Origin: Desulfovirgula sp.
GTDB lineage: Bacteria; Bacillota; Desulfotomaculia; Desulfotomaculales; Nap2-2B
Length of the DNA: 64,000 nt
Assembly (NCBI GenBank): GCA_020725585.1
Contig: DYES01000065.1
Span: forward strand, 737-64,736
Reading direction: 5' to 3'
Shown: in pieces, positions 13,410-19,907 of the stretch
Numbering within the stretch: the stretch's first letter is position 1
Layout: each line of letters opens with the position of its first letter
Made by a program: the position numbers and the translations under genes
The notes under the pieces: generated by a model
Database searches by the model: none
What the model saw: only the letters and a program-made list of their open reading frames with translations
What the model was told of the DNA's origin: nothing

Positions 13410-14792
13410 ATGCGCAAATCAGTGTTTAATCTTTATCATGCCCGCAACTTCCTGGCCGCACAAATCCTCTTCCGCATCCTGGCCTACCTGGAAAAAAATC
13501 CTGAGGTCAACTTCCCGCGGCTTTTAGCCGTTGCCAAAAAAATCGCTGTTTTCAAAAAGCATAAAGACCAGATCGACCGTGTGGCGGCCACTTACCGGGA
13601 AAACGAGGCCATCCAAAAATACGTCCACCGCCTGCTTACCAACACCCACCCGAACGTCAAAAAGCGCCTCGGGCACAACTGGTTCATTAGCGAAATGCTT
13701 TTGGGGATTCCCTACCGGCAGAACCTCTCGGAAAAGCTGGGCGTGCACATCCCCAACTTTCTTCTGGTAGACCCCACCAGCGCCTGCAACTTGAGCTGCA
13801 CGGGCTGCTGGGCCGGCAAATACGGCAAAAAAGACTCCTTGAGCCTTGCGCGGCTGGACCGTCTCTTCACCGAAGCAAAGGAGCTGGGCATCTACTGGAT
13901 CGTCTTCTCCGGCGGAGAGCCGCTGTGCTACCCGCACCTGTTTGACCTGCTAGCCAAGCACAGCGACATGGCCTTTATGGCTTACACCAACGGGACGCTG
14001 ATCAACGAGAAAGTGGCTGACAAAATCATCGCGGTGGGCAACTTCACCCCGGCCATCAGCCTGGAAGGGTGGAAAGAAACCACGGACGCCCGCCGGGGAG
14101 CCGGCACCTTTGACAAAATAATGCGGGCCATGGACCTATTGCGCGAAAGAGGGGCGGTCTTCGGGGTTTCGGTGACCATTACCCGCTACAACGTAATGGA
14201 AGTAACCAGCGATGAATTCATCGACTTCCTGATCGAAAAAGGGGTCACTTACGGCTGGACCTTTCACTACATCCCCATCGGGCGCAACCCCGACGTGGAC
14301 CTCATGGTTACGCCGGAACAAAGGGCCTATTTGGCCGAGCGCATCCCTTACATCCGGACGCATAAGCCGATCCAGATCGCCGATTTCTGGAATGACGGAG
14401 AACTGGTGGAAGGCTGTATCGCCGGCGGGCGCAGCTACTTCCACATCAACGCCAAAGGGGACGTGGAGCCCTGCGCCTTTGTCCACTTTGCCCTGGACAA
14501 CATTAATGAAAAAAGCTTGCTGGAGGTCTTAAAGTCGCCTTTGTTTGCAGCCTACCAGAAAAGGCAGCCCTTCAGCAAAAACCTTTTGCGCCCCTGCCCA
14601 ATCATTGACGTGCCGCAGGCCCTGCGGGAAATCGTCCGCGAATCCGGCGCCCGCCCCACCCACGAGGGAGCAGAAACCGTTTTGGAGGGAACCATCGCCC
14701 GCTTTTTAGACCGCCGCTCCTCCGAGTGGGAAAAGGCGGCCGACGAAATCTGGGCGGCGCGGCGTGGAACGAAGAAGGCGGAGGGGTTTTAA
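13410..14792 (+). CDS. radical SAM protein with C-terminal SPASM/twitch-like Cys region
   Basis: CNLSCTGC (CxxxCxxC), SGGEPL, YTNGTL, GCIAGGRSYFHINAKGDVEPC and RPCP motifs. Confidence 0.92.
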   Translation: MRKSVFNLYHARNFLAAQILFRILAYLEKNPEVNFPRLLAVAKKIAVFKKHKDQIDRVAATYRENEAIQKYVHRLLTNTHPNVKKRLGHNWFISEMLLGIPYRQNLSEKLGVHIPNFLLVDPTSACNLSCTGCWAGKYGKKDSLSLARLDRLFTEAKELGIYWIVFSGGEPLCYPHLFDLLAKHSDMAFMAYTNGTLINEKVADKIIAVGNFTPAISLEGWKETTDARRGAGTFDKIMRAMDLLRERGAVFGVSVTITRYNVMEVTSDEFIDFLIEKGVTYGWTFHYIPIGRNPDVDLMVTPEQRAYLAERIPYIRTHKPIQIADFWNDGELVEGCIAGGRSYFHINAKGDVEPCAFVHFALDNINEKSLLEVLKSPLFAAYQKRQPFSKNLLRPCPIIDVPQALREIVRESGARPTHEGAETVLEGTIARFLDRRSSEWEKAADEIWAARRGTKKAEGF

Positions 14793-14815
14793 AGAGCGTT
14801 CATCCAATCTAATTC

Positions 14816-14856
14816 AAAAAACCGGGGGTGTCTTGAAAAGCCTACCGGTTTTTTTT
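14816..14856 (+). terminator. rho-independent terminator
   Basis: AAAAAACCGG...CCGGTTTTTTTT after the radical SAM stop. Confidence 0.6.
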
Positions 14857-15083
14857 ATTTTGTTTTTATTGACACGGAAATAGTTCAACAACAAACCTGT
14901 TGGTCCTGCAGCGAGGACGCCTATTGGCTAATCTAAAGGCTTAAAGCTCGTTAAGTAAAAAAAACAAAACCAAAAACAAAAGGCAAAAGGTTAAATGGGG
15001 GTTTACTTCGTCGTTTAGGGCTACTATATTATTATTATATTGTCACCAAATCCCCCGAAAATTTGCCGTCCCAGGAGGAAATT

Positions 15084-16448
<1,365 letters not shown>

Positions 16449-18068: not shown

Positions 18069-18142
18069 TCCTGCCCTGCCTCCCGGTTTATTTTATCCTA
18101 CCGGCTCTTTTTTCTACAAGCCCATCAAAAATAAAATTTACA

Positions 18143-18169
18143 GAAGGATTACTTTTTTTGATGAAGAAT
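18143..18169 (+). promoter_or_regulatory. sigma-H-like promoter of the CoA-transferase-fold operon
   Basis: GAAGGATTA-N11-GAAGAAT matches the sigma-H consensus RNAGGAWWW-N11/12-RNNGAAT. Confidence 0.55.
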
Positions 18170-18226
18170 AAACTCTCTTATAGAATTTATAAATATTTTA
18201 AAGAATAAAGAAAGGAGGCAAAATCC

Positions 18227-19024
18227 ATGCTACCAGAAAAGTTGATCCCGCTTTTGGAAGCGCAAAAATTTTTTCAAACCGGGAGCATTATTGCCATCGG
18301 CGGCCAGTCTGTATTTATGAACCCCATGGGATTAATCAAAGAACTAATGAAAAGCGGCTGCAAATCTATAAATCTCGTAGCTTCACCGGTGGGCGGCCTG
18401 GGTATTGACCTGTTGATCGGCGCCGGGCTGGTCAACTCGGTAGAATTTGCCCAGGTCAGCCTTTGGGAGTACGGCCTGGCCCCGAATCTGCGGCGCCATG
18501 CGGAAAGCGGCCGCTTAAAACTAAAAGAACATGCCTGAACGAGCTTTTTTGCCGGGCTCCAGGCTGGAGCCATGGGCTTGCCTTTTTTGCCCGTCCGGGG
18601 CTTAATCGGCACCGACTACTTGCGCATCCGTCCCGACTTTCAGATCATTAAAAATCCGTACGGGGAAGATGATCTGGTAGCCATTCCCGCCATCAAGCCA
18701 GATCTTTTGCTCATGCACGCATACAAAGCAGATCGCTTTGGCAATGTGCTGACGGACAAGCGAGAAAGCGATCCCCTGCTGGCCCGCGCATCAGATCGCG
18801 CCATAGCAACGGCGGAAGAAATCGTTCCGCACGTAGAACCAGAGGCGGATAAAATAATCATCCCGGGCATTTATATCGACGCCGTTATTCACCTGCCCGG
18901 CGGGGCGAAACCGACGGCCTGCCCGGGGTATTATGAGATCCAGGACGAAGAGATCCGGCGTTACCTGCAGGCGGCACAAACGCCGGAAACTTTTCGCCAG
19001 TACCTGGAAGAGTTCCTTGCCTGA
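18227..19024 (+). CDS. class I CoA-transferase-fold alpha subunit (GctA/IpdA-like), predicted selenoprotein of 265 aa with in-frame TGA at codon 104
   Basis: ORFs 18227-18538 and 18572-19024 are in the same frame and join as ...RLKLKEHA-[TGA]-TSFFAGLQAGAMGLPFLPVRGLIGTD...; IAIGG, AYKADRFGN and IIPGIYIDAV motifs intact; SECIS-like hairpin follows. Confidence 0.85.
18539..18580 (+). promoter_or_regulatory. bacterial SECIS-like hairpin
   Basis: Stem GGCTCCA (18555-18561) / TGGAGCC (18565-18571) with a G-starting loop 23 nt after the UGA; can extend by GCC/GGC or CGAGC/GCTTG pairing. Confidence 0.7.
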
Positions 19025-19039
19025 AAGGGAGGTGATCAC

Positions 19040-19771
19040 ATGTCAGATCTGGCCTACACCCCTGAAGAATTAATGGCCGTACTGATCAGCCGGGAGGTGC
19101 GCGACGGCGAAAGGATCGGCGTGGGCACCCTTTCCCCCGTAGTGGCCGCGGGATGCATTTTGGCCCACCACACGCACGCGCCTAACGCCAGCCTGGCCAT
19201 CTGGCGGTTTAAGGAATACTGGCCCTTTACCGAAGGAATGAAAGAGCTGTTTGACCTCGGCCAGCGCGGCAAGGTGGACCTGTTCTTTTTAAGCGGCGCC
19301 CAAATAGATCGTCACGGGAATACCAATCTTGTAGCCATTGGCGATTATAGCCAGCCCAAGGTGAGATTGCCCGGGGGAGCGGGCTCGGCTACCTTATCTT
19401 ACACCGTGCCCCGCATAATCTTGTTCCAGGTCAACCACTCGAAACGCACATTTGTGGAAAAAGTAGATTTTATTACTGCCACCAACAACCCGCCGCCAAA
19501 CGTATACCGCCGGGGTAAATTTACCAAATGCATTACCCCCCTGGCGATCTTGAATTTTGAGGGGGAAAACCCTCTTTTGGAAGCGGTCAACCCGGGAGTA
19601 TCGGTACAACAGGTGGTTGAGAATACGGGCTTCACCCTGGTTATCCCCCCCAACGTAAAGGAGGCGCCCCCGCCAACCAGCGAAGAATTGCAGGTTTTGC
19701 GCACCGTCGTGAAAGAAAAGATACGCGCCGTATATCCGCAATTCAGCGCCACCGCTTTCAAAAAACCGTAA
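19040..19771 (+). CDS. class I CoA-transferase-fold beta subunit (GctB-like)
   Basis: YTPEELMA...DGERIGVG, FFLSGAQIDRHGNTNL, RLPGGAGS, FVEKVDFIT and NPGVS.QQVVENTGF motifs; GGGAGGTGA RBS. Confidence 0.9.
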   Translation: MSDLAYTPEELMAVLISREVRDGERIGVGTLSPVVAAGCILAHHTHAPNASLAIWRFKEYWPFTEGMKELFDLGQRGKVDLFFLSGAQIDRHGNTNLVAIGDYSQPKVRLPGGAGSATLSYTVPRIILFQVNHSKRTFVEKVDFITATNNPPPNVYRRGKFTKCITPLAILNFEGENPLLEAVNPGVSVQQVVENTGFTLVIPPNVKEAPPPTSEELQVLRTVVKEKIRAVYPQFSATAFKKP

Positions 19772-19907
19772 AAATTGGTCTTTTGATAAGAAAACGAAAA
19801 GCTTAAGCTATACTCTCTAAAACTCTAAAACACTATCTCTTGACTAATTGCTTAAACAATGATAAAGTTTTTTTAGGCAATTCCACCAGAAGGGAAGGTT
19901 TAAGGGC

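Follow-up and report, generated by a model that had tools for sequence, protein, structure and literature searches.

Does a TGA codon in the middle of an otherwise intact gene end a protein or encode selenocysteine (Sec), and what would a Sec residue do in an enzyme built on the class I coenzyme A (CoA)-transferase fold? Both questions are raised by a locus within a 64,000-nucleotide stretch of Desulfovirgula sp. DNA (contig DYES01000065.1), referred to here as the window, whose positions are used throughout. Two adjacent genes on its forward strand, at 18227-19024 and 19040-19771, are predicted to encode the alpha and beta subunits of a heteromeric enzyme with the class I (GctAB-type) fold, and the first of them contains an in-frame TGA at 18536-18538. 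We consider it likely that the pair forms an acyl-CoA enzyme of this fold that carries Sec at residue 104 of its alpha subunit and that does not transfer CoA. The evidence on the codon, on the RNA downstream of it and on the reaction is described below.

The in-frame TGA of the alpha gene

The alpha gene runs on the forward strand from an ATG at 18227 to a true stop, also TGA, at 19022-19024, and has 265 codons including the one for Sec104. The sequence AAGGAGG at 18212-18218 (forward strand), 8 nucleotides before the ATG, reads as its Shine-Dalgarno element. The single interruption of this frame is the forward-strand TGA at 18536-18538, which follows the first 309 nucleotides, or 103 codons, and at which a list of open reading frames (ORFs) splits the gene into 18227-18538 (103 amino acids) and 18572-19024 (150 amino acids). 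Reading through the TGA gives a protein of 265 residues with the local sequence KEHA-U-TSFFAGLQAGAMGLPFLP, and the product around residue 104 reads KEHA-U-TSFFAGLQAGAMGLPFLPVR. A first-pass annotation of the window had taken the two ORFs for one frame broken by a single TGA, as the read-through product bears out. The beta gene (19040-19771, forward strand, 243 amino acids, without the canonical catalytic glutamate) begins after a gap of 15 nucleotides. Because its ribosome-binding site, the Shine-Dalgarno sequence AAGGGAGGTG read at 19025-19034 of the forward strand, sits inside this gap, the layout suggests that the two genes form one operon.

The read-through protein was used as the query of a six-frame search of 61 related genomes and a 401-genome sample of the phylum. 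Each of the 52 match rows obtained has either no stop or exactly one TGA, and no TAA or TAG occurs inside any homologue match in these 61 and 401 genomes. In all 17 TGA-bearing genes of the phylum, the window's included, the TGA falls in one alignment column, even though these genes span nine family codes and carry four different local motifs (EHAUTS, DHTUPG, EHTUP and EGSUTAI). A scan of one genome per species added 13 further TGA forms, in which the TGA again occupies this column and is the one internal stop of a frame that stays open over at least 264 codons. By record title, seven of these belong to Methylomirabilota/Rokubacteria, five to Dehalococcoidia/Chloroflexota and one to a metagenome-assembled genome titled Verrucomicrobiia. 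The same-column TGA is therefore present in a total of 30 genomes, at 33-87% identity to the query, and the TGA form is widespread, with at least three phyla represented by record titles and many families of anaerobic or thermophilic Bacillota.

Two of the record titles are at odds with the sequences that they head. A congener contig (L085) titled 'Armatimonadota bacterium' is 86% identical to, and syntenic with, contigs titled 'Bacillota bacterium', and a genome search places it in the window's genus. The Verrucomicrobiia-titled record (L117) has a gene and neighbours of Methylomirabilota type. Both titles are probably taxonomic or binning mislabels.

The residue that replaces Sec in homologues is most often cysteine. 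The closest full-length homologues in the databases, from Paenibacillus and Cohnella (42-49% identity) and from proteobacteria, all have Cys at column 104, and Cys is invariant there in A1 (31 sequences, with the query itself written C for U). In 180 pooled homologues this column holds C in 83, U in 30, N in 21, E in 19, S in 9, H in 8 and G in 6, with D, Q, T and L once each. The mixture of TGA (30 genomes) and Cys at codon 104 is what the first-pass annotation had named, along with a conserved downstream hairpin, as support for Sec, and the motif D-x-T-C-P-A-I-H-A-x-L-Q-A that it gave for related alpha subunits does occur, for example in the homologues P0031, P0036 and P0037.

Sec and Cys forms are also mixed phylogenetically. 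In a maximum-likelihood tree of 116 rows, thinned at 80% identity within the same residue state and with the trait's own column kept, the window's protein lies in a clade of 47 rows, 40 with Cys and 7 with Sec (support 99 in the Shimodaira-Hasegawa-like approximate likelihood ratio test, SH-aLRT). A second clade unites six Sec and three Cys forms (SH-aLRT 98). The two states interleave, well-supported branches force at least four Sec/Cys switches, and the sequences with Glu at column 104 fall outside the Sec/Cys clades. The branches between one Sec form from Dehalococcoidia (L102) and one Cys form from the databases (P0018) measure only about 0.1 each, which on the sequences looks like a very recent exchange.

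The genome from which the window comes encodes the machinery needed to insert Sec. It contains selA (631 bits), selB (403 bits), selD (394 bits) and tRNA-Sec, the selC product (72 bits), all above curated cut-offs, so that the four genes whose presence had been proposed as a check were all found. The selD gene itself (locus L007 on G000:C6, TGA at locus position 1531) has an in-frame TGA in the context SKTSG-U-AAKVG, followed by an 8-base-pair stem with a G-first GUC triloop comparable to the hairpin of the alpha gene described below. Since selD is thus a selenoprotein gene, the organism depends on working Sec decoding. Among the other TGA-form genomes, selA was found in 10 of the 10 tested, and among Cys-form genomes in two of five; it was not found in two Paenibacillus and one Cohnella genome.

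Standard gene calling yields two ORFs at this locus, as would be expected if the TGA were a real stop, either in a pseudogene or in a naturally split alpha subunit of 103 and about 150 amino acids. Database entries have the same appearance, for 18 of the 120 homologues listed are C-terminal fragments of 148-182 amino acids that start at query positions 106-121, a splitting that had been foreseen for automatic annotation. Several observations count against a real stop. We counted pairwise codon changes among five genomes of the genus and obtained 258 synonymous and 133 non-synonymous changes upstream of the TGA, and 445 and 153 downstream of it in the alpha frame, whereas the two other downstream frames gave 68 and 510, and 50 and 519, respectively. 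By these counts both halves of the alpha frame are under purifying selection, and the synonymous excess on either side agrees with the earlier statement that the frame has no other sign of decay. Between the TGA and the next ATG lie 11 codons, in which the ten pairwise changes counted are all synonymous. This ATG is ATC in two of the five congeners, so a separate second ORF could not start there, and the sequence ahead of 18572 contains no ribosome-binding site. Moreover, the interruption is always TGA, always in the column of the invariant Cys, down to 33% identity, and selA accompanies it in the window's genome as in the ten others. A real stop is accordingly very improbable in our judgement.

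Low-level read-through of UGA exists in bacteria, and the codon could in principle be read without selenium, by a near-cognate Trp, Cys or Arg tRNA or under a reassigned code; it could also be an assembly error. Genome-wide reassignment does not fit, because the alpha gene itself ends at TGA. Leaky read-through would not explain why exactly this TGA is conserved, and Cys homologues together with a complete Sec machinery point to Sec. As for assembly, only one sequencing run (X1), a possible source of the window's DNA, bridges the TGA with a contig, and does so without differences. In a second run (X2) one contig stops at the T of the TGA and another begins 28 nucleotides before it (31-nucleotide rule), and the contigs of the sequencing runs give no independent confirmation of the codon. 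Four congeneric genomes that were assembled independently share the TGA, as do 25 more distant genomes, which speaks against an error. We regard selenium-free read-through and misassembly, taken together, as scarcely credible. The three runs that hold window positions 18100-19800 (X1-X3, with shares of 0.98, 0.71 and 0.26, from two studies) are labelled hot springs metagenome, and the host is probably a hot-spring bacterium.

The TGA at 18536-18538 very probably encodes Sec, because it recurs in one column opposite an invariant Cys, Sec and Cys forms are intermixed across the tree, the hairpin described below is retained, the genome has the Sec machinery, and selA co-occurs with the TGA form.

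The candidate SECIS hairpin

Bacterial Sec insertion sequence (SECIS) elements are stem-loops located 16-37 nucleotides downstream of the UGA with a G in the apical loop. A candidate of this kind lies at 18552-18575 on the forward strand. Its core stem of seven base pairs consists of GGCTCCA (18555-18561) and TGGAGCC (18565-18571) around the loop GGC (18562-18564), which begins 23 nucleotides after the A of the TGA. An outer extension, CCG/UGG with one bulge, brings the stem to ten base pairs. The hairpin with its G-first loop had been reported in the first-pass annotation, and both its coordinates and its folding were reproduced. We propose that SelB and tRNA-Sec would decode the UGA as Sec with the help of this hairpin, giving a 265-residue alpha chain.

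The structure is maintained across genomes, in part by compensatory changes. In an RNAalifold analysis of nine sequences from three of the motif groups, seven pairs occupy the same columns; three of them are changed on both sides and none is broken. Seven sequences of the EGSU group have a 6-base-pair stem located one nucleotide further upstream; its loop is of CGUGC type, and in two of its pairs both sides have changed. Some of the compensatory changes alter the protein (Q to R together with G to A), and peptide and RNA seem, from the alignment, to co-vary. When pairing was scored in a fixed register, 10 Sec forms had seven of seven pairs versus a mean of 3.5 and a maximum of 5 of seven in 31 non-Sec paralogues. 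The 13 Sec forms found by the one-genome-per-species scan retain 5-7 pairs, and 17 Cys forms 1-6.

Several observations weigh against reading the hairpin as a SECIS element. The single-sequence fold of 71 nucleotides is no better than those of shuffled sequences (z = -0.77), so that the hairpin must draw its weight from comparisons between genomes. It coincides with the codons of a conserved A/G-L-Q-A-G-A motif, which are palindromic in themselves. Five Cys forms (L088, L091, L094, L099 and L106) retain five or six of the seven pairs, and one non-Sec paralogue (L054) has a stronger local hairpin, at -18.5 kcal/mol. A scan of 18300-18800 against Rfam with E-values up to 10 gave no SECIS match and one chance match of snoRNA-like type. 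The hairpin is in part a by-product of the A/G-L-Q-A-G-A codons, to judge from the sequences compared, and is supporting evidence for Sec, not decisive evidence.

A terminator-like element at 18567-18588, a 5-base-pair stem and then GCCTTTTTTG, extends over the hairpin's 3' arm within the coding region; the terminator scan gives the hit itself as 18567-18579. Its T-run encodes a conserved LPFLP, and we treat the element as a chance occurrence.

Residue 104, the beta subunit and the reaction

Both subunits belong to the Pfam family CoA_trans (PF01144; cut-off 23), alpha with 88.6 bits (E = 4.9e-25) and beta with 71.6 bits (E = 8e-20). NCBIfam offers no specific model, the best equivalogs reaching 56 bits versus a cut-off of 315 and 55 versus 128.5. 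The nearest solved structures are AibA (8e-32), GctA (4e-23) and IpdA (about 1e-22) for alpha, and AibB (3e-21), GctB (3e-20) and IpdB (6e-14) for beta. An AlphaFold model of alpha built with 88 homologues has a predicted local distance difference test (pLDDT) score of 97.2, and in Foldseek comparisons it superimposes on AibA, IpdA and GctA with TM-scores of 0.89-0.93. A run on a 9-sequence alignment (pLDDT 60, residues 101-135 below 50) was discarded.

In the model residue 104 is the first residue of a helix (104-116) that directly follows a strand (98-101). Activated thiolates typically sit at the start of a helix. In HMMER alignments residue 104 falls on the E of REMD-E-GM in IpdA of Rhodococcus jostii (6co6_A) and Mycobacterium tuberculosis (6con_A). 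A further chain, 6coj_A, reads REMDAGM and thus has A at column 104; the title of this entry is 'IpdAB E105A COCHEA-CoA complex'. These three alignments and the title identify residue 104 as the positional equivalent of IpdA Glu105, an equivalence that the first-pass annotation had drawn from a shared offset to the GLQA motif. We take Glu105 to be catalytic in IpdA, in keeping with the 6coj title and with a review statement that IpdAB is a retro-Claisen hydrolase. On this alignment and the modelled position, residue 104 is probably a catalytic residue of the alpha subunit.

The acyl-anhydride and CoA-thioester intermediates of class I CoA-transferases arise on a glutamate of the beta subunit. 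We aligned 16 beta subunits at this position. Three partners of ordinary 330-residue alpha paralogues carry Glu in FTEGG; in every beta partner of a Sec or Cys alpha the Glu position is instead A, S, T or I/W. The window's beta subunit reads THAPNASLAIWRF there, and the E-x-G glutamate of class I enzymes is absent. The proposal that this locus encodes a protein of CoA-transferase fold thus stands as far as the fold is concerned (Pfam, Foldseek), whereas transferase function is probably not retained, since beta lacks the catalytic Glu.

The genes around the pair differ between lineages. Within the window's genus, the window included, the pair has murJ upstream and a GGDEF gene downstream and stands alone between them, and the conserved neighbours (radical SAM/SPASM, DUF1015, MurJ, GGDEF, germination and UvrB) are unrelated to it. 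The radical SAM/SPASM (460 amino acids) and DUF1015 (461 amino acids) genes, at 13410-16448, are syntenic in at least two congeners (L082, L083). Upstream of alpha, a weak sigma-70-like promoter match (TTGATG-17-TAGAAT, 9 of 12 positions) lies at 18158-18186 on the forward strand; the region has two such sites versus 2.2 expected in shuffled sequences, so this match is not beyond chance, and the scan for promoters and terminators around the alpha gene gave nothing above chance.

In several other lineages a genuine CoA-transferase recurs beside the pair. At least 15 Paenibacillus and Cohnella loci combine an NtaA/DmoA-family monooxygenase, an Opp-type ABC transporter, alpha, beta, a 197-residue protein, a family III CoA-transferase and DinB_2; these Cys-form operons (L088-L103, L107 and L115) have one or more monooxygenases of flavin mononucleotide type. 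The Dehalococcoidia cluster comprises an S58 peptidase, a 248-residue protein, alpha, beta, a NUDIX protein, a 2-dehydropantoate-reductase-like protein, an acyl-CoA dehydrogenase, a family III CoA-transferase and an Ich/RipB-like hydratase. Neither the 197-residue protein that follows beta in Paenibacillus nor the 248-residue protein that precedes alpha in Dehalococcoidia has a Pfam or NCBIfam match. Seven EGSU loci (L074-L080, in G308, G357, G278, G348, G422, G096 and G201) share a conserved cluster around the Sec pair, with two sets of genes for HdrA-like (about 350 amino acids), HdrB-like (CCG) and HdrC-like (4Fe-4S) proteins, an MFS transporter and a CBS/sigma-54 activator; three of the seven also have a second, Glu-bearing GctAB-like pair. 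This cluster may be an uncharacterised anaerobic catabolic operon. Elsewhere the pair adjoins glycogen genes on the opposite strand (G443 and G160), regulators, RecA and RNase Y (G042, G026 and G019), or an H+-pyrophosphatase and a large cyclase/AAA/TPR protein (Methylomirabilota). The neighbours in these loci and in the window's genus offer no functional hint. A steroid-catabolism (KstR2-type) context was found neither around the window's pair, with its MurJ, GGDEF and germination neighbours, nor in the other loci examined.

The absence of the beta glutamate, together with the bona fide CoA-transferases that adjoin the pair in other lineages, argues that the enzyme does not transfer CoA. By analogy with IpdAB and AibAB, we lean towards a non-transferase of their kind over a CoA-transferase. 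The adjacent CoA-transferases fit an enzyme that receives an acyl-CoA made by another protein, and in the mechanism that we propose the substrate would be such an acyl-CoA, probably a dicarboxylyl-CoA. The beta chain no longer has the glutamate on which true CoA-transferases carry their acyl and CoA groups. Sec104, at the helix N-terminus and at the position of IpdA Glu105, would provide a selenolate (a thiolate in the Cys orthologues) that acts as nucleophile or base in C-C cleavage, decarboxylation or hydrolysis. The enzyme would then probably be an acyl-CoA lyase, hydrolase or decarboxylase.

A genuine selenoprotein could also have remained a transferase, or have become a thioesterase, if Sec104 took over from the beta Glu and formed a selenoester, passing the acyl group to a carboxylate, phosphate or water. 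The fold and its CoA-binding scaffold are retained, Sec is by established chemistry an excellent nucleophile and leaving group, and acyl-accepting cysteines, like residue 104, often stand at a helix N-terminus. However, passages in PMC6678751 and PMC7756340 describe both characterised relatives that lack the beta Glu, IpdAB and AibAB, as non-transferases. In addition, a bona fide CoA-transferase adjoins the pair in three lineages, where a second one would be redundant, and no acceptor is apparent. We therefore view a selenoester transferase or thioesterase as an unlikely alternative to the non-transferase enzyme.

The EGSU cluster brings in a further alternative, a redox selenoprotein in which Sec104 forms a selenenyl-sulfide or an Se-C adduct during reductive cleavage of an acyl-CoA, as in glycine or proline reductase, and an Hdr-like partner regenerates it. 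The Sec pair does lie in a conserved Hdr-like cluster in seven loci, and most known selenoproteins are redox enzymes (PMC13188914). Yet Hdr-like genes are confined to the EGSU sub-clade, which is 33-37% identical to the query, and are missing around the window's gene and around the forms of its genus, of Dehalococcoidia, Methylomirabilota and Paenibacillus. No resolving Cys is conserved near residue 104, and aerobic carriers of the Cys form have no Hdr-like partners. The Hdr-like genes keep a redox role alive for the EGSU sub-clade only; for the family we think it improbable, more so than a selenoester enzyme.

Some points also tell against the non-transferase acyl-CoA enzyme that we favour. 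The assignment of a lyase, hydrolase or decarboxylase reaction is by analogy only. Sec is a poor general acid at neutral pH, and a proton-donor role like that proposed for AibAB would be odd. No metabolic genes adjoin the pair in the window or its genus, and the contexts in other lineages differ among themselves. Finally, unlike most known selenoproteins, the protein has no CxxU or UxxC redox motif close to residue 104.

A bolder version of this reading would hold that the family is an unlisted selenoprotein family in which Sec serves as a covalent nucleophile, with an Se-acyl or Se-C intermediate on an acyl-CoA and not in thiol-redox chemistry, as a third catalytic solution, beside Glu and Cys, on the CoA-transferase fold. 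We offer it tentatively, as something less than an even prospect. The Hdr-linked sub-clade may, within this version, define a new Sec-dependent reductive pathway analogous to glycine reductase.

Novelty and likeness to known systems

New selenoprotein families are reported regularly. A 2026 review lists 119 prokaryotic selenoprotein families or subfamilies in its Table 1 (PMC13188914), which contains no entry of CoA-transferase fold and in which PF01144 occurs 0 times, consistent with the earlier statement that CoA-transferases stand outside the classical selenoprotein families. In the literature we found no paper that describes a selenoprotein of this fold, although supplementary lists of large-scale screens could hold the family. 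Sections of PMC5736913 mention both selenoprotein and CoA-transferase terms, which they treat separately. From the sequences, the pair very probably belongs to a new selenoprotein family that is an uncharacterised catalytic variant of a known fold. In the databases, Cys forms are named 'CoA transferase subunit A' or 'glutaconate CoA-transferase subunit A'.

Because annotation systematically splits the gene or labels it hypothetical, an enzyme family of anaerobes, hot-spring Bacillota, Methylomirabilota and Dehalococcoidia escapes metabolic reconstructions. Known selenoproteins are overwhelmingly thiol-redox proteins, and Sec at the site of a catalytic Glu, on an acyl-CoA scaffold that lacks a redox motif, would widen the chemistry for which selenium is selected. 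The Cys-form orthologues of cultivable Paenibacillus and of proteobacteria are uncharacterised and provide an easy experimental entry point.

The gene shares with known selenoproteins a single UGA, Cys orthologues, interleaved Sec and Cys forms, a hairpin after the UGA and a distribution confined to genomes that have the Sec machinery. Unlike them, it has no thioredoxin-like fold, and Sec stands where the nearest characterised enzyme has a carboxylate. With GctAB and other class I CoA-transferases (PF01144) the pair has in common the fold (TM-score 0.89 to GctA), the two-subunit organisation and the gene order. However, the beta glutamate that defines those enzymes is absent here, and GctA has Gln at the position of Sec104.

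The best sequence match is to AibA/AibB, the 3-methylglutaconyl-CoA decarboxylase of Myxococcus xanthus (5mzw-5n03; 8e-32, 32% identity, TM-score 0.89). It resembles the pair in being a non-transferase with an active-site thiol in place of a carboxylate, and its substrate is a dicarboxylyl-CoA, in line with the C5-dicarboxylate-like gene neighbours in Dehalococcoidia. A passage of PMC7756340 places AibB Cys56 at the canonical Glu position and proposes it as the general acid of the decarboxylase. The thiol of AibAB is thus on beta, whereas here beta has Ala, Ile, Ser or Thr, and the chalcogen is on alpha, at a position where AibA has Gly. In the HMMER alignment THAPNAS of the window's beta subunit pairs with THAPDLT of AibB (chain residues 48-54), and a gapless count puts Cys56 of AibB at Ala53; among the beta partners of Sec or Cys alpha subunits in the 16-sequence alignment, none has Cys in this column.

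IpdAB, the COCHEA-CoA hydrolase of steroid ring C/D catabolism (6co6, 6co9, 6coj and 6con), has the same alpha/beta GctAB-type fold (TM-score 0.92-0.93). Its key residue is likewise on alpha at the aligned position, Glu105 versus Sec104, and it acts on a CoA thioester with no transfer of CoA; IpdB, too, presumably lacks the transferase glutamate. The two systems differ in having Glu there and Sec or Cys here, they are only 26-28% identical, and the pair has no steroid context. A section of PMC6678751 describes IpdAB as a retro-Claisen hydrolase; a selenolate need not react as a carboxylate base does. IpdAB and AibAB are two non-transferase branches of the GctAB fold, and this family, its Cys-form orthologues included, looks like a third, in which the key residue is on alpha, as it is in IpdAB, but a chalcogen nucleophile takes the place of the carboxylate.

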